A stretch of DNA of 64,000 nt, from NCBI GenBank assembly GCA_963815585.1, contig CAWFHJ010000020.1, positions 88,673 through 152,672 of the forward strand. The letters are read 5' to 3'. The DNA comes from an uncultured Actinomycetota bacterium. GTDB lineage: Bacteria > Actinomycetota > Actinomycetes > Propionibacteriales > Nocardioidaceae. Shown piece by piece: positions 3,137 through 50,537 of the stretch. Positions within the stretch are counted from its first letter, which is position 1. The number at the start of each line of letters is the position of its first letter. The notes beneath the pieces were generated by a model. It was not told the DNA's origin and did not search any database. It worked only from the letters and a program-made list of their open reading frames with translations. Made by a program: the position numbers and the translations under genes.

Positions 3137-3954
3137 GCGCCGGCCACCTTGCGCTGGGCGGCGGCGTCGGGCTCGTCCTGTGCCTTCGCGTCGGCCTCGG
3201 CCTGGCGGGCGATCTCGGTGGCGTCGACCTGGTGACCCGAGGAGGTGACGCCGGTCTGGGTGAGGTCGATGGTCCGCACCGTACGACGGGCAGCGGGCTT
3301 GGAGACGTACGTCGGCAGGGTGAGGGGCAGCGGGTCCCAGAGCGAGCCGTCGTCCTCAGCCTCGGGCGGGAGCGGGACTGCGACGGTCTCGCCGGCGGTC
3401 TCGACAGGCTCGACCAGCGAGGACGTCTCGACAGGCTCGACCAGCGAGGAGGTCTCGACAGGCTCGACCAGCGAGGACGTCTCGACAGGCTCCACCAGCG
3501 AGGACGTCTCGACGGGCCCAACGACCGGGGGAGCAGCGGCGCGGCGACGCACCGGGGCAGCCCTGCGCACCATCAGCCGGCACATCACCAGCCAGGTCAC
3601 GACCAGCACGCCGGGGATGGCGGGCGTCCAGGCGGGCAGGTAGGCGAGGTAGGCCGCGACGCCGGTGCCGGCGGTCACCAGCAGCAGCAGGCCGAGCACG
3701 CGGCGACGGCGACGGGCAGGGCTCGACGGCTGGCGCGTACGACGCGTGCGCGGTCCGGCAGGCTCGGCCACGGCCGGCGGGGTCAGCAGCGCCTTCATCG
3801 TGGCGGGGGTCCGCTCGAGCACGCGCATGGTCTCGGAGAAGCTGTCGACGGGACGGCTGGCCGCGATCTCCTCGTGGTGCCGCAGCGCCTTCGGGATGAG
3901 GTAGGCAGCCCACCCGACGGCGAGCACGACGAAGATCAGTCCGGACAGGTCCAC
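3133..3954 (-). CDS. GlpR/SepX-like membrane protein (cell division associated)
   Basis: N-terminal TM segment then ...FSETMRVL, RRRRR-TM pair, disordered region with WDPLPLTLPTYVSKPAARRTVRTIDL; sits next to GNAT/moeA as in other actinobacteria; start reassigned to GTG 3954. Confidence 0.75.
   Translation of the reverse strand: MDLSGLIFVVLAVGWAAYLIPKALRHHEEIAASRPVDSFSETMRVLERTPATMKALLTPPAVAEPAGPRTRRTRQPSSPARRRRRVLGLLLLVTAGTGVAAYLAYLPAWTPAIPGVLVVTWLVMCRLMVRRAAPVRRRAAAPPVVGPVETSSLVEPVETSSLVEPVETSSLVEPVETSSLVEPVETAGETVAVPLPPEAEDDGSLWDPLPLTLPTYVSKPAARRTVRTIDLTQTGVTSSGHQVDATEIARQAEADAKAQDEPDAAAQRKVAGA
3397..3513. repeat. 27-bp tandem repeat (4 units plus a partial) of the REP-like motif GTCTCGACAGGCTCGACC, in frame in the CDS, encoding (SSLVEPVET)x4
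   Basis: Units start at 3398, 3425, 3452, 3479 and 3506. Confidence 0.95.
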
Positions 3955-15631: not shown

Positions 15632-15772
15632 AGGACGGACCTCGGGTAGAGCCCATTCTTTTCACGGGCAACACGTCTGTGGGCACCCCCATTGTGCGGT
15701 GCTGGACTGCCAGACTCCAATCGGACAGGTGTGAAGCGTGCCCGTCCTGGGGTCGGGCCGAGGGGGTGCGTT

Positions 15773-16840
15773 GTGATCAAGTACCTCGGTTCCAAGCGCC
15801 TGCTGGTGCCGGTGCTGGGCCGGATCGCGAGCGCCGTCGGAGCGCGGACCGCGGTCGACCTGTTCACGGGCACCACACGCGTCGCACAGGAGTTCAAGAG
15901 GCGCGGGCTCGAGGTCACCGCCGTCGACGTCGCGACCTACGCCGAGGTGCTGGCCCGCTGCTACGTCGCCACTGACGCCCGCGCCGTCGACCAGGACCGG
16001 CTCGCGGAGGCGCTGGGTCGGCTGAACGGGCTCCCCGGACGCCGCGGCTACGTGACCCGCACGTTCTGCGAGGACGCCCGCTACTTCCGTCCGGAGAACG
16101 GCCGCCGGATCGACGCCGTCCGCGACGCGATCGAGGAGTACGACGAGGCGCTGCGGCCGCTGCTGCTGACGTCCCTGCTCCTCGCCGCCGACCGGGTGGA
16201 CTCCACGACCGGGCTGCAGATGGCCTACCTCAAGCAGTGGGCGCCGCGGGCCGCCAAGCCGCTGACCCTGGTCGCACCGGCCCTGGTCGACGGCACCGGC
16301 ACGGCGCTGCTCGGCGACGCGACGACGCTGGTCGACGACCTCCCGGTGACGGACCTGGCCTATCTCGACCCGCCGTACAACCAGCACCGCTACTTCACGA
16401 ACTACCACGTCTGGGAGACCCTGGTCCGCTGGGACCGCCCCGATCACTACGGCATCGCGTGCAAGCGGGCCGACGCCCGCGACCCGGTCACCAAGTCGGT
16501 GTTCAACTACCGGGGCTCGATGCCCGAGGCGCTGCGCTCGTTGATCGCGCGCACCCGCGCCGAGGTGGTCGTCGCGTCGTACAACGACGAGAGCTGGGTG
16601 CGCCCGGAGGAGATCACGACCGCTCTCGCAGAGGCGGGACACGAGAGGGTCGAGGTGATCGGCTTCGACAGCAAGCGCTACGTCGGCGCGCAGATCGGCA
16701 TCCACAACCTCCGCGGCGAACGGGTCGGCGAGGTCAGCCACCTGCGCAACACGGAGTTCCTGTTCGTGGCGGGTCCCGGGGACAAGGTCGACGCCGCGGT
16801 CGCGGCGGCACGCGGCAGCGCCCCGGTCGCCACCGGCTAA
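15773..16840 (+). CDS. Orphan N6-adenine DNA methyltransferase (D12/FokI-M-like)
   Basis: IKYLGSK, DLFTGT (motif I), YLDPPY (motif IV); start GTG 15773. Confidence 0.9.
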   Translation: MIKYLGSKRLLVPVLGRIASAVGARTAVDLFTGTTRVAQEFKRRGLEVTAVDVATYAEVLARCYVATDARAVDQDRLAEALGRLNGLPGRRGYVTRTFCEDARYFRPENGRRIDAVRDAIEEYDEALRPLLLTSLLLAADRVDSTTGLQMAYLKQWAPRAAKPLTLVAPALVDGTGTALLGDATTLVDDLPVTDLAYLDPPYNQHRYFTNYHVWETLVRWDRPDHYGIACKRADARDPVTKSVFNYRGSMPEALRSLIARTRAEVVVASYNDESWVRPEEITTALAEAGHERVEVIGFDSKRYVGAQIGIHNLRGERVGEVSHLRNTEFLFVAGPGDKVDAAVAAARGSAPVATG

Positions 16841-16851
16841 TCTGGCCCGCG

Positions 16852-16924
16852 GCCCCAGTAGCTCAGTGGATAGAGCAGCCGCCTCCTAAGCGAAAGGTCG
16901 CCAGTTCGACTCTGGCCTGGGGCA
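16852..16924 (+). tRNA. tRNA-Arg (anticodon CCT)
   Basis: GCCCCAG/CTGGGGC acceptor stem, GCTC/GAGC D-stem, loop CTCCTAA, GCCAG-TTCGACT-CTGGC T-arm; no encoded CCA. Confidence 0.93.
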
Positions 16925-16943
16925 CCGCCCCGCGCTGCCTGGT

Positions 16944-17454
16944 GCTCGAGCCTGTCGAGAGCTCACCAGGTCTCGACACCCGCTCGCTGGCGCTCGCTGC
17001 TCGACCACCAGCTCCCGGCGCTCGAGCCTGTCGAGAGCTCACCAGGTCTCGACACCCGCCCACCAGCTCCCGGCGCTCGAGCCTGTCGAGAGCTCACCAG
17101 GTCTCGACACCCGCTCGCTGGCGCTCGCTGCTCGACCACCAGCTCCCGGCGCTCGAGCCTGTCGAGAGCTCACCAGGTCTCGACACCCGCTCGCTGGCGC
17201 TCGCTGCTCGACCACCAGCTCCCGGCGCTCGAGCCTGTCGAGCGCTCACCAGGTCCCGACACCCGCCCACCAGCTCCCGGCGCTCGAGCCTGTCGAGCGC
17301 TCACCAGGTCTCGACACCCGCTCGCTGGCGCTCGCTGCTCGACCACCAGCTCCCGGCGCTCGCTGCTCGACCACCAGCTCACCAGGTCTCGACACCCGCT
17401 CGCTGGCGCTCGCTGCTCGACCACCAGCTCCCGGCGGTCGAGCCTGTCGAGACC
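16944..17454. repeat. BIME-like mosaic array of 76-bp and 55-bp units built from alternately oriented REP-like motifs
   Basis: Units start at 16944 (76), 17020 (55), 17075 (76), 17151 (76), 17227 (55), 17282 (76), then rearranged partials; ends with GGTCGAGCCTGTCGAGACC. Confidence 0.95.
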
Positions 17455-17509
17455 CCTCCGACCGGTGGGCCCTCGGTTGGCCACTGGACGGAGATGAGGC
17501 TACCCTCCG

Positions 17510-17528
17510 TTAGGTAAGCCTTACCTGA
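17510..17528. promoter_or_regulatory. IdeR/DtxR iron box
   Basis: TTAGGTAAGCCTTACCTGA versus consensus TTAGGTTAGGCTAACCTAA, 2 bp before the efeU ATG. Confidence 0.9.
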
Positions 17529-17530
17529 CG

Positions 17531-18409
17531 ATGGAGCGGGACGTGTTCGGCAACTACCTGATCGGTCTGCGCGAGGGTCTCGAGGCCAGCCTCGTCGTCG
17601 TGATCCTGATCGCCTACCTGGTCAAGACGGACCGCCGACGGCTGCTGCCCCGGATCTGGGCCGGTGTCGCGGTCGCGGTGCTGGTCTCGCTCGCGTTCGG
17701 CGCGCTGCTGACCTACGGGCCGCGGCGGCTGACGTTCGAGGCCCAGGAGGCGATCGGCGGCATCCTCTCCCTGGTCGCCGTCGGCTTCGTGACCTGGATG
17801 GTCTTCTGGATGGCGCGCTCCGCGCGCGGCCTGTCCGGTGACCTCAGGGCCGGTGTCGACCGGGCCGCTGACGCGGGTCGCGCCAGCCTGGCGGTGGTGG
17901 CGATGCTCGCGGTCGGGCGCGAGGGTCTCGAGACCGCGCTGTTCCTCTGGGCAGCGACCGAGGCCGCCAGTGGCGGCGGCTCGGCGACCCGGCCGCTCCT
18001 GGGCGCGTTCCTCGGCCTCCTCACCGCCGTGGTGATGGGTTTCCTGTTCTACAAGGGCGTCCTCAAGATCAACCTCTCCAAGTTCTTCGCCTGGACCGGC
18101 GTGATCCTGATCGTGGTCGCCGCCGGCGTGCTCGCGTACGGCGTGCACGACCTCCAGGAGGCGGGCATCCTCCCGGGCCTGAACAGCCTCGCCTTCGACG
18201 TCACCGCCCAGATCCCGCCCGGCTCCTGGTACGGCACGCTGCTCAAGGGCACCCTCAACTTCTCGCCGGCCACCACGTGGCTCCAGGCGGGCGCGTGGAT
18301 CGCCTACGTCGTGCCGACCCTCACGCTCTTCCTGCGCGCAATCCGGAGCGGCAGCCGGCCGGCCACCCCCGCTCCCGCCACCGCACCGCAGCCCGCGTCC
18401 GGGCGCTGA
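17531..18409 (+). CDS. efeU: FTR1/EfeU iron permease
   Basis: Two REGLE motifs and multiple TM segments. Confidence 0.95.
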   Translation: MERDVFGNYLIGLREGLEASLVVVILIAYLVKTDRRRLLPRIWAGVAVAVLVSLAFGALLTYGPRRLTFEAQEAIGGILSLVAVGFVTWMVFWMARSARGLSGDLRAGVDRAADAGRASLAVVAMLAVGREGLETALFLWAATEAASGGGSATRPLLGAFLGLLTAVVMGFLFYKGVLKINLSKFFAWTGVILIVVAAGVLAYGVHDLQEAGILPGLNSLAFDVTAQIPPGSWYGTLLKGTLNFSPATTWLQAGAWIAYVVPTLTLFLRAIRSGSRPATPAPATAPQPASGR

Positions 18410-33300: not shown

Positions 33301-33393
33301 AAGGTTGACGTCGGCAACTATATTCCCCGTGCTCTCCCGCGTCGACTTTCGGCGGGGTCGGCTGCGTCACATCCTCCCCGGCGACAGATGCAG

Positions 33394-33640
33394 CGACCCG
33401 CAGGCGGGGCCTTGATGGGCCCTGCACCGGTGGATAGGCCGGTCGCCTGCGGGTCGGGTGACTGCTTCTGGATTCGCCAGCAGCGCCTGCACGGCTCTCG
33501 TCGTGGACGGGGCTGGCTGGTGTGCTGCTAGCGGGCAGCCACCTCACGCATCCGATAAGAACTCATTCTTCGGACCACCTCCTTTCCCGTGTACGACGAG
33601 CGTAGGCCGACGCCGGGCCGCCAACAAGAGCTTTTCGAAT
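33394..33640 (-). ncRNA. Candidate structured RNA carrying a 12-codon sORF
   Basis: GAAAGGAGGTG SD, sORF 33566-33528, long-range GGUGGCUGC/GCAGUCACC pairing, terminal 13-bp stem with two internal hairpins. Confidence 0.6.
33528..33566 (-). CDS. sORF MSSYRMREVAAR (12 aa)
   Basis: ATG 33566 to TAG 33528, preceded by the full anti-SD complement AAAGGAGGTG (33576-33585). Confidence 0.6.
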   Translation of the reverse strand: MSSYRMREVAAR

Positions 33641-41536: not shown

Positions 41537-41646
41537 GGTCTCGACAAGCTCGACCGCCGCGAGTCTCGACAAGCTCGACCGCCCGGGGTCTCGACAAGCT
41601 CGACCGCCCGAGTCTCGACAAGCTCGAGCGCCGGAGTCTCGAAACC
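41537..41646. repeat. Four tandem copies plus a partial of the REP-like motif GTCTCGACAAGCTCGACC, 24-25 bp period
   Basis: Copies at about 41537, 41562, 41587 and 41611; between convergent citA and GNAT genes. Confidence 0.93.
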
Positions 41647-50497: not shown

Positions 50498-50537
50498 GAT
50501 CGAGCTTGTCGAGATCTGGGTCTCGACAGGCTCGACC
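50498..50537. repeat. Inverted doublet of the REP-like motif
   Basis: GATCGAGCTTGTCGAGATC-TG-GGTCTCGACAGGCTCGACC. Confidence 0.85.

Follow-up and report, generated by a model that had tools for sequence, protein, structure and literature searches.

On balance, we regard the repeat array at positions 16944 to 17454 of the window, the whole stretch of 64,000 nucleotides that was analysed, as a non-coding cluster that stands on its own and consists of a dispersed repeat, selfish or neutral, whose family would spread in a templated manner. The array requires no function. The repeat, with the motif GGTCTCGACARGCTCGACCACCGG, is the commonest repeat of the genome (top 14-mer family) and occurs in a short form, S, of 24 nt, G-GTCTCGACARGCTCGACC-ACCGG, and in longer forms, L1 and L2, of about 39-41 nt with extra central bases.

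The array is real: reading the sequence and running Tandem Repeats Finder both gave units of 76, 55, 76, 76, 55 and 76 bp, followed by partial units. The program reported periods of 55, 76, 131 and 207 bp, the last with 2.4 copies at 95% match over 16944-17452, and the higher-order unit of 207 bp is the sum 76+55+76. Each unit is an inverted pair of an S variant and L2, which has 20 extra central bases. Module A, GCTCGAGCCTGTCGAGAGC, is the motif reversed with 2 mismatches, and module B is made up of GGTCTCGACA, CCCGCTCGCTGGCGCTCGCT and GCTCGACC. The two are joined by the linkers TCACCA and ACCAGCTCCCGGC, and the module map reads Arev-/L2+, repeated. The module alternation, constant linkers and unit lengths given in the preliminary description were thereby reproduced, as was the position directly after tRNA-Arg, the 3′ end of which lies 17 nt before the array (Table 1). 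In the window as a whole there were 15 motif matches at ≤2 mismatches against 0.08 expected.

As in a BIME-type cluster or a REPIN doublet, copies alternate in orientation, can pair with each other and are separated by constant linkers. For example, both modules of unit 1 pair into an 8-bp hairpin, TGTCGAGA/TCTCGACA. The surroundings of unit 3 (17066-17146, 81 nt, equivalent to unit 1) gave a DNA fold of -20.1 kcal/mol (z -2.3). The BIME-like clustering in alternating orientation was also seen in two sister arrays, at C7:141955 and C18:26832. Units 5 and 6 have the variant GAGCGCTC in common, and unit 5 additionally carries GGTCCCGAC. The terminal canonical S probably marks the side from which the cluster was founded, still without mutations.

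Table 1. Features of the array, its surroundings and other family members in the window.
Feature	Position	Strand	Evidence
D12-class N6-adenine DNA methyltransferase gene, upstream context	15692..16840	+	Pfam PF02086, E 2.5e-36
tRNA-Arg (anticodon CCT)	16852..16926	+	ARAGORN; Rfam RF00005, 59.8 bits
Whole array: six inverted S-variant/L2 doublets, partial unit, terminal canonical S	16944..17454	.	sequence, TRF, module map
Unit 1, 76 bp: S variant in reverse orientation (GCTCGAGCCTGTCGAGAGC), TCACCA, L2 (GGTCTCGACA-CCCGCTCGCTGGCGCTCGCT-GCTCGACC), ACCAGCTCCCGGC	16944..17019	.	sequence
Unit 2, 55 bp: layout of unit 1 minus 21 bp inside the L2 module	17020..17074	.	sequence, TRF
Units 3 (17075-17150) and 4 (17151-17226), 76 bp each	17075..17226	.	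sequence, TRF
Units 5 (17227-17281, 55 bp) and 6 (17282-17357, 76 bp)	17227..17357	.	sequence
Partial/shuffled unit: L2 3′ half, linker, full L2, linker	17358..17435	.	sequence
Terminal canonical S, GGTCTCGACAGGCTCGACC on the minus strand	17436..17454	-	exact match, 0 mismatches
Palindrome TTAGGTAAGCCTTACCTGA, just 5′ of the FTR1 gene	17510..17528	.	sequence; relatives
FTR1-family iron permease gene, downstream context	17531..18409	+	Pfam PF03239, E 6.3e-62
Other family array, 27-bp period, in frame in a minus-strand membrane-protein ORF, (SSLVEPVET)n	3398..3517	+	
Other family array, 25-bp period, between convergent ORFs	41538..41642	+	
Intergenic REPIN-like doublet, two S copies in inverted arrangement	50498..50537	.	

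The synteny of tRNA-Arg(CCT) and FTR1 is maintained in the congeners G002, G016 and G013, and no motif was found in their tRNA-Arg/FTR1 spacers of about 600, 135 and 205 nt, respectively. The internal variant GCTCTCGACAGGCTCGAGC occurs eight times in the genome, and six of these copies are within the array. This private S variant shows that the array grew in place by tandem duplication. The stepwise duplication proposed earlier is indeed indicated by the shared variants. The array itself can no longer be taken as a sign of mobilisation, since the private variant shows growth in situ instead. In the scenario that we propose, an inverted S/L2 doublet would have entered the spacer after the split from the examined congeners, a landing deduced from the empty spacers, and its S arm would then have gained two point changes. 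Local amplification of the 76-bp doublet is evident as a pattern, and unequal recombination or replication slippage may have been the process behind it. A variant shortened by 21 bp (55 bp) would have arisen first, then a triplet of 76-55-76 (207 bp), next a second copy of this triplet and finally the ragged partial units.

The S family is a distinct family dispersed over the genome, as had been proposed, with 237 exact 18-mer cores, 297 copies at ≤1 mismatch and about 155 loci, far above chance. The 24-nt unit is sharply bounded, its information content falling to about zero at -2 and at +23. A logo built from 124 single copies begins with G-GTCTCGAC and shows no GTAG or GGAG, in agreement with the lack of a REP tetranucleotide noted in the preliminary description. 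At none of the tested boundaries did target-site duplications of ≥3 nt exceed the control level, and the sequence of the S unit has no terminal inverted repeats; identity as a MITE was rejected on these two grounds. A single S with its flanks did not fold (MFE -3.1 kcal/mol, z -0.02 against shuffles), and inverted units folded modestly (z -2.3 to -2.7). The single motif is therefore non-palindromic, and the label "REP-like" stands for inverted pairs but not for the motif itself. Neither the motif, nor its reverse complement, nor its peptide translations were found in the literature searched, and no existing name for the family was found there either, consistent with the earlier designation as unnamed. 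A search by keyword likewise yielded no relevant paper.

An extragenic location, as expected of REPs, did not hold for this family, about a quarter of the loci being inside ORFs. By a local frame test with a random control, 38 of 152 loci were spanned by a same-frame ORF against 56% of random positions, figures that rest on crude, GC3-based gene calls and testing. These loci use only three frames. Inside ORFs, S is translated, for example, as VSTGSTTG, VVEPVET or LDKLDHR. In-gene insertions fall in loops or linkers, as in LeuRS-like and biotin-carboxylase-like genes. Array periods are 24, 27 or 39 nt inside genes and 25 nt in an intergenic array.

S copies were present in 12 of 401 class-wide genomes, and copy number ranged from 0 to 237 across congeners. 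The exact 24-mer was found in named Nocardioides, Marmoricola, Cryobacterium, Leifsonia, Arthrobacter, Pseudarthrobacter, Specibacter and Promicromonospora, and several actinobacterial families have S with identical sequence. An annotated Arthrobacter ABC ATPase (RefSeq CDS) contains a (PSVELVET)n array. The only carrier among 72,556 plasmids was a 754-kb Arthrobacter replicon, and a search of phages gave no convincing match to the motif. Apart from DUF222, the recurrent neighbours in 117 foreign loci belonged to common families only (ABC ATPases, response regulators), and none of these was adjacent to the motif.

A syntenic 15-kb block was compared among relatives. Sites 1, 3 and 4 are common to this genome (G000), G004 and G020, with a decayed copy at site 4 in G020. 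Site 2 is clearly common to G000 and G004 only, G020 having at most a decayed remnant. In G005 and G013, S is missing from sites 1 to 4. Sites 5 and 6 are occupied in G000 alone. In G004, half-repeats have expanded in tandem at sites 2 and 4, and G005 has the 39-nt L form exactly at the S position of the other genomes at sites 2 and 3. The block records insertions of different ages, growth in situ, and S/L allelism at two orthologous sites. At site 4, the alleles with and without S are equal in length; the "insertion" there may be a replacement, or an old copy may have decayed elsewhere. The S/L allelism could alternatively have resulted from repeated site-specific insertion, not conversion.

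The preliminary description had suggested mobilisation in trans, with a RAYT-like or other nuclease gene flanked by the motif as the thing to look for. No Y1_Tnp (PF01797) was detected in this genome and 11 others (8 of the 12 motif-bearing), in a search that did detect the enzyme in 6 of 14 known genomes used as positive controls. The absence of a RAYT from the window thus extends to this genome and seven other motif-bearing ones. Nor was a reverse transcriptase (RVT_1, PF00078) found in the motif-bearing genomes G000, G004, G013, G305 and G418, and templating by a retroelement (retron, DGR or group II intron footprints) was rejected for these five. With no RAYT and no reverse transcriptase in the tested S-bearing genomes, another mechanism is needed. 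Mobilisation in trans stays a proposal: the sole nuclease gene with flanking motif copies was a multi-copy DUF222-HNH gene, and its linkage to the motif is lineage-specific.

S/L copies enter a site in either orientation and leave no target duplication there, whether between genes or, in frame, inside them. They persist for long, build tandem arrays in situ and, at two orthologous sites, switch between S and L. We read these features together as signs that copies spread, and are kept alike, by a templated process resembling break repair or gene conversion, and cut-and-paste or Y1 transposition would not be the mode of spread. The best local enzyme candidate is the DUF222-HNH nuclease family preceded by LexA boxes. 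This mechanism is deduced from static genomes, one per species, in which no transposition or conversion event was seen.

DUF222-HNH (13E12-type) genes are the only high-copy genes of the genome, with 32 loci. At 23 of these, S/L arrays lie 5′ of the gene, all antisense to it. The DUF222 5′ flanks, 2.6% of the genome, contain one third of the family copies, i.e. 94 of 297 against 7.7 expected (12-fold). In the unrelated DUF222 subfamilies A and B, unit-specific DNA meets S exactly at the S 5′ boundary, and a LexA-type box, TCGAAC-N4-GTTCGA, lies between the S/L array and the gene. The type B unit lacks a module on its 3′ side. An intact type B protein of 433 aa is encoded at C31:449293-450591, and a type A example lies in the region C9:68918-69829. 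The linkage was seen in relatives as well. In G013, DUF222 genes of a subfamily only 35% identical are located within S/L mosaics, with modules in the same orientation on both sides. DUF222 genes are also linked to S/L modules in G004 and G020, a single L module precedes the DUF222 gene in G015 and G017, and 7 of 11 DUF222-bearing loci in other named genomes show linkage. Searches with the DUF222-HNH protein gave no related solved structure and no NCBIfam match.

These observations could mean that S/L modules are cis sites of DUF222-HNH, whose SOS-induced cutting, followed by ectopic repair, would spread and homogenise modules and units and leave the tRNA-Arg array as an orphan. By tblastn, the contig holding the window (C20) has no DUF222 match, and the neighbours of the array are the D12 methyltransferase and FTR1 genes, so the array is an orphan. 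We consider this cis-site explanation possible but not probable. It would account for the number of loci with 5′ arrays, their single orientation and enrichment, the exact junction in both subfamilies, the LexA-type box, the linkage in divergent and foreign genes and the high copy number of this one gene family, and S/L switching at orthologous sites fits nuclease-driven conversion. However, DUF222 genes are common in motif-free actinobacteria, and copy numbers of DUF222 and motif are uncorrelated (20/0 in G007, 43/1 in G022, 2/35 in G305). Moreover, 12 DUF222 loci were examined in five motif-bearing genomes from four other genera, of which three belong to other families, and none of these loci adjoined an S/L module. 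The type B unit without a 3′ module also counts against it, and recognition of S or L by these HNH proteins is only putative. The DUF222 linkage is lineage-specific, and the missing correlation and the 12 module-less loci weaken DUF222 as an obligatory partner. The same two observations weigh against the mechanism that we favour, in which this nuclease is the enzyme candidate.

Only tentatively, and with more doubt than conviction, do we suggest that S/L modules and DUF222-HNH genes preceded by an SOS box act as partners, in a nuclease-repeat system that has not been described before and would parallel REP-RAYT with an HNH enzyme. If this were true, damage-induced cutting and ectopic repair would spread modules of 24-39 nt into intergenic DNA and protein loops. 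The modules would be kept homogeneous in each genome, as S in this one and as L at the corresponding sites of a sister species. Such a partnership would build arrays and would give the 13E12 repeat family a mechanism.

In a further explanation, S/L arrays serve as landing pads or neutral sinks for oriented insertion of DUF222-HNH, and the motif moves otherwise, by host recombination or repair or by another factor. The genes within S/L mosaics in G013, flanked by same-orientation modules as if inserted into an array, suggest this, as do the precise junctions that two unrelated subfamilies form with the 5′ boundary of S and the motif expansions without DUF222 linkage in other genera. On the other hand, no pair of empty and filled sites of a DUF222 unit was found, the flanks of the tested unit being non-syntenic in relatives. 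Congeners that are nearly free of S retain one upstream L module, which looks like a part of the unit and not a target. We judge this explanation to be unlikely.

A host function of the array, as a set of protein-binding sites or as hairpins that insulate the iron-regulated FTR1 operon from tRNA-Arg or terminate transcription between them, appears very unlikely. In favour of it, the units form hairpins, and the array separates a tRNA from a promoter whose palindromic operator is conserved. The core of this palindrome, AGG(T/C)AAGCCTTACCT, was found in G002, G016 and G013, and we take its resemblance to an IdeR/DtxR iron box as making it a candidate of that kind. Since these relatives keep the palindrome and lack the array, the array lies outside the conserved promoter-proximal part. 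Against a host function, the same spacer exists in three congeners without the array, and family copies occur anywhere, the interior of ORFs included. No terminator-like or promoter-like consensus was found in 16700-17700. Rfam, at gathering and permissive thresholds, gave only the tRNA and an unrelated sRNA; weak nhaA-I matches (E 0.1) were dismissed. Adjacency to tRNA genes is not enriched (4 tRNAs near motifs against 2.4 expected), and tRNA-linked integration was rejected on this ground. Under the preferred reading of a cluster that needs no function, the array hairpins may still hinder, incidentally, read-through from the tRNA/methylase side into the iron-regulated FTR1 promoter, a predicted effect only. 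A look-up of the exact FTR1 protein, meant for strain comparison, found no identical protein on record.

An assembly artefact, or a chance minisatellite outside any family, is hardly credible: the assembly is a draft of 31 contigs and short-read assemblers can misjudge copies in 55/76-bp arrays, but this array is inside a 203-kb contig with unique flanks, and its motif is found by the hundred in this genome and again in numerous independent assemblies, complete genomes included.

To our knowledge, a good understanding of small dispersed repeats is limited to those with a known RAYT or IS partner. The S family is unusual in being dominant in its genome, short, non-palindromic, free of duplications and written into protein loops. 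The oriented DUF222-HNH linkage of this lineage is a concrete, testable candidate, which could illuminate the role of 13E12/REP13E12 elements in mycobacterial genomics. The variable S arrays in and between genes are useful for typing, generate variation in protein linkers and can mislead short-read assemblers and gene callers.

REP13E12, or the 13E12 repeat, of Mycobacterium tuberculosis has been reported to be DNA-damage-induced and a recombination hot spot (PMC13157036). Multi-copy DUF222+HNH genes (Pfam) preceded by LexA-type boxes are shared with that system, but the genes described here are embedded in S/L mosaics. We found no literature report of 13E12 genes with leader arrays of a short dispersed repeat. 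Mycobacterial MIRU/VNTR loci are, like the S family, actinobacterial dispersed repeats with variable tandem arrays, frame-compatible unit lengths and no known mobiliser. MIRUs are 46-101 bp long and lie mostly between operon genes, whereas the S family has a shorter core, both orientations and inverted doublets; no sequence relation was apparent.

Rickettsia palindromic elements (RPEs) resemble the S family as selfish in-frame insertions that add peptide segments to coding genes, with no transposase known. Their preservation of frame is matched by the 24- and 39-nt units and the in-gene periods of 24, 27 and 39 nt. The two are set apart by description: RPEs are alpha-proteobacterial palindromes of 100-150 bp, and S is actinobacterial, non-palindromic and 24 nt long (L about 39), and its family forms tandem arrays in genes too.

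There are also parallels with REP/BIME and REPIN-RAYT systems ("REPtrons") of E. coli and Pseudomonas. Both consist of short dispersed repeats in hundreds of copies, with alternating clusters, hence hairpin pairing of neighbours, local tandem amplification, a patchy distribution among species and, in this lineage at least, a repeat-flanked nuclease gene. In contrast, a REP folds into a hairpin by virtue of an imperfect palindrome, about 20-40 nt long, and has a 5′ tetranucleotide of the GTAG/GGAG type; a single S has neither. REPs are extragenic, while a quarter of S loci are inside ORFs. REPs have a cognate Y1 (IS200/IS605-type) RAYT, which was absent from the tested motif-bearing genomes; the S-flanked gene encodes an HNH nuclease instead, and the copies next to it are direct rather than inverted.

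The sequence at 16944-17454, between tRNA-Arg(CCT) and the FTR1 iron permease gene, was re-read and agreed exactly with the anatomy first described. Its six units measure, in order, 76, 55, 76, 76, 55 and 76 bp. Each unit runs from GCTCGAGCCTGTCGAGAGC through TCACCA and GGTCTCGACA-CCCGCTCGCTGGCGCTCGCT-GCTCGACC to ACCAGCTCCCGGC, with 21 internal bases missing from the 55-bp units and GAGCGCTC common to units 5 and 6. Tandem Repeats Finder reported periods of 55, 76 and 131 bp and a higher-order period of 207 bp (76+55+76; 2.4 copies, 95% match). The units combine the 24-nt short motif S with L2, one of two long forms (L1 and L2, about 39-41 nt) that carry extra central bases. Inverted S/L2 doublets fold modestly (z -2.3 to -2.7), and this architecture recurs in only two further arrays of the source genome G000 (C7:141955 and C18:26832).

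Features of the window, of its genome and of the syntenic block (plain positions refer to the window, C numbers to contigs of G000; G004, G020, G005 and G013 are relatives of G000)
Feature	Position	Description
Same-family array	3398-3517	four to five 27-bp units
tRNA-Arg(CCT)	16852-16926	array begins 17 bases later
Partial array unit	17358-17435	
Canonical reverse motif copy	17436-17454	array end
Palindrome TTAGGTAAGCCTTACCTGA	17510-17528	directly upstream of FTR1 iron permease gene
Same-family array	41538-41642	intergenic, 25-nt period
Inverted motif pair	50498-50537	
DUF222-HNH gene	C7:102451-104526	
DUF222-HNH gene	C31:449293-450591	
DUF222-HNH gene	C10:618332-619722	
Block site 1		G000, G004, G020: S; G005, G013: none
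Block site 2		G000: S; G004: S + tandem half-repeats; G020: at most decayed remnant; G005: L (39 nt); G013: empty
Block site 3		G000, G004, G020: S; G005: L (39 nt); G013: none, possibly decayed remnant
Block site 4		G000: S; G004: S + tandem half-repeats; G020: decayed S; G005, G013: none
Block sites 5, 6		G000: S; G004, G020, G005, G013: none

The window held 15 matches to GTCTCGACARGCTCGACC with at most 2 mismatches, against 0.08 expected. The genome (4.05 Mb, 71% G+C, 31 contigs) held 237 exact 18-mers, or 297 with at most 1 mismatch, at about 155 loci, 31 of which were multi-copy with up to 13 copies each; the motif is thus not rare outside the window, as expected of the dispersed family first proposed. 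The most frequent 14-mers of the genome were those of the motif. L1 (GGAGGTTTCGAGACGGCGCTGGCGCGCCTCCTCAACCACCG, about 41-50 copies) and L2 (GGTCTCGACACCCGCTCGCTGGCGCTCGCTGCTCGACC, about 14-20 copies) ranked after S. Heads (GGTYTCGA) and tails (CTCRACCACC) are common to L and S, and S looks like an L lacking its central 17-20 bases. In a logo of 124 single copies the unit was sharply bounded at 24 nt, G-GTCTCGACARGCTCGACC-ACCGG, with zero information on either side. Motif copies had no target-site duplication, and a single S unit folded no better than shuffles (z -0.02). Two palindromic words unrelated to the motif were also over-represented, CGTCGTACGACG (14-mers with about 40-64 copies) and CCACGTGAACGTGG (39 copies). 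Near-identical long stretches linked contigs C2 (41.7 kb) and C26 (45.6 kb), C7:332983-358610 and C13, and C10:391246-416989 and C19; these stretches reflect either redundancy in the assembly or genuine large duplications or plasmid copies.

The internal S variant of the array differs from the consensus by two changes. Because six of its eight copies in the genome sit in the array, the array copies descend locally from a single mutated founder and did not arrive repeatedly. The variant shared by units 5 and 6 bears out the stepwise duplication suggested earlier. The tRNA-Arg(CCT)-FTR1 neighbourhood is kept in three congeners, and the motif is absent from their spacers (about 600, 135 and 205 nt). 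The array is lineage-specific and grew in place.

Growth in place was also seen in a 15-kb syntenic block compared among five species, one genome per species, in which G004 and G020 were 83-85% identical to G000. Sites 1-4 are common to G000 and G004, and mostly to G020, so these insertions are older than the divergence of these species. Only G000 has S at sites 5 and 6, and site 6 adjoins a stop codon. In G004, the closest relative (locus L195, C1:73000-88500), the 3′ half of the motif was expanded to three tandem copies at site 2 and five at site 4, both in frame in coding sequence and one of them in a biotin-carboxylase-like linker. These additions are direct evidence of array growth in situ. 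The 39-nt L form of G005 (GGTTTCGAGAC[A/G]CTCGCTGGCGCTCGCTCCTC...) occupies the exact position of S in three other species at site 3 and in two others at site 2. Since two independent sites differ alike between lineages, they call for either gene conversion between dispersed copies or repeated site-directed insertion.

Copies inside genes were recognized, with home-made gene calls, by the same stop-free, high-GC3 frame on both flanks running through the element. By this local test 38 of 152 motif loci lay inside ORFs, compared with 56% of random positions. Their translations use three of the six stop-free frames (VSTGSTTG, LDKLDHR and opposite-strand VVEPVET), and the periods of in-gene arrays (24, 27 and 39 nt) are multiples of three. 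For example, a 24-nt array translates as (VSTGSTTG)x9 and a 27-nt array as (NPTVEPVET)x13, and the 27-bp array of the window is read in frame as (SSLVEPVET)n in a minus-strand membrane-protein ORF. An Arthrobacter replicon annotated in RefSeq has the repeat too, as (PSVELVET)n within an ABC ATPase tail. Hosts include LeuRS-like and biotin-carboxylase-like genes, with the motif in variable loops; at one LeuRS loop site it is present in G000, and decayed in G004 and G010, and the other species have shorter or different sequence there. Upstream of a LeuRS-like gene of G000 (C31:~220300-221039), a stop-free extension translates a mosaic of L-type modules in which VSRRSLGLAPQPSS and RLFCNRLETSGGRG recur, a further module array in a 5′ leader.

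Among 40 relatives, the richest carried 114, 109, 90 and 15 motif copies, compared with 237 in G000; the other 20 congeners had 0-6, and all 16 genomes from the other families of the order had none. Of 401 genomes sampled evenly across the class (175 genera), only 12 had any copy; besides G000, three had at least 10, one of them in another family. The exact 24-mer occurred in named Nocardioides, Marmoricola, Cryobacterium, Leifsonia, Arthrobacter, Pseudarthrobacter, Specibacter and Promicromonospora genomes. Patchiness of this kind, combined with a consensus that is the same in different families, is the signature of lineage-specific bursts that were seeded horizontally. The 24-mer was also found on the contigs of loci L001, L080, L087, L093 (in a MAG labelled Fibrobacteria) and L068 (in a MAG labelled Caldilineales); these bins are assigned to non-actinobacterial phyla, and the contigs are most likely mis-binned actinobacterial ones.

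We read the array as an orphan cluster, amplified locally, from a repeat family that is selfish or neutral, spreads without duplications, is tolerated in protein loops and remodels them, persists across speciation, grows in tandem and is homogenized within lineages. Such features are best matched by a templated break-repair or conversion process.

A nuclease gene flanked by the motif, which the preliminary description proposed to look for, was found in the lineage of G000. The only high-copy genes of G000 are of the DUF222-HNH (13E12-type) family, with 32 loci and two main subfamilies. In type A (about 7-9 copies) PF02720 and PF01844 both exceeded the cut-off; in type B (about 15 copies, the ORF intact in only about 5) PF01844 did so and, in the genome scan, PF02720 as well. 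Motifs lay 5′ of the gene, always antisense, at 23 of the 32 loci, and 94 of the 297 motif copies fell beside these loci, in 2.6% of the genome (7.7 expected). Outward from the type B gene come a perfect LexA-type box, TCGAAC-N4-GTTCGA, immediately before the start codon, about 40 bases peculiar to the unit, and then S, L1, a third module, another S and so forth; all modules have the same orientation, and the array length varies between copies. The 3′ end of type B has no modules and is a hairpin with its stem kept and its loop differing between copies. In both subfamilies the 5′ boundary of S is an exact junction with unit-specific DNA. The type B homologues of G004 and G020 (73% nucleotide identity) have the box and L modules. 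In the motif-rich congener G013, whose DUF222 subfamily is only about 35% identical, an antisense L module lay upstream of a LexA-like box at four of five loci inspected at full length, and an S/L mosaic followed the gene at all five, its modules alternating in orientation much like the array studied here. G015 and G017, nearly free of S, still had a single L-like module, about 95 nt ahead of the DUF222 start codon, and the examined copies of G007, G009, G012 and G022 had no clear module. In other named genomes the motif was upstream and antisense at 7 of 11 DUF222-bearing loci.

REPs were first linked to RAYTs by evidence of this kind. DUF222-HNH is the best candidate enzyme within this lineage, and the oriented, enriched linkage would suit a direct mobilizer. 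However, DUF222 copy number does not track motif number, and none of 12 loci examined in five other motif-bearing genomes (four other genera, three of them in other families) had a nearby module. The link is not general, and direct mobilization by this enzyme seems rather unlikely. The reverse dependence, in which DUF222-HNH units insert at S/L arrays that spread by other means, is itself improbable. That the array serves a host function is very hard to credit, with no terminator-like or promoter-like consensus and no Rfam family fitting the tRNA-Arg/FTR1 spacer.

The palindrome upstream of FTR1 (core AGGYAAGCCTTACCT) is conserved in three congeners as AGG(T/C)AAGCCTTACCT; we take it to resemble an IdeR/DtxR-type iron box. 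Placement of motifs by tRNA genes was considered and rejected: four tRNAs lay within 500 nt of a motif, with 2.4 expected and a random maximum of 6, which is no enrichment. Elsewhere in the window, positions 33388-33592 of the minus strand matched the actinobacterial sRNA Ms_IGR-5 (RF02471) in Rfam over its full length (112 bits).

The search for a Y1 transposase, the partner of classical REPs, turned up no PF01797 in G000 and seven other motif-bearing genomes, four of the seven at least 98% complete, and positive controls were detected. Five motif-bearing genomes had no reverse transcriptase, and the unit has no terminal inverted repeats. Without these and without target duplications, the family is neither a RAYT-type REP, nor a MITE, nor a retro-templated repeat. 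Its likeness to known families is purely descriptive: it is BIME-like in its clustering and RPE-like in its in-frame insertion.
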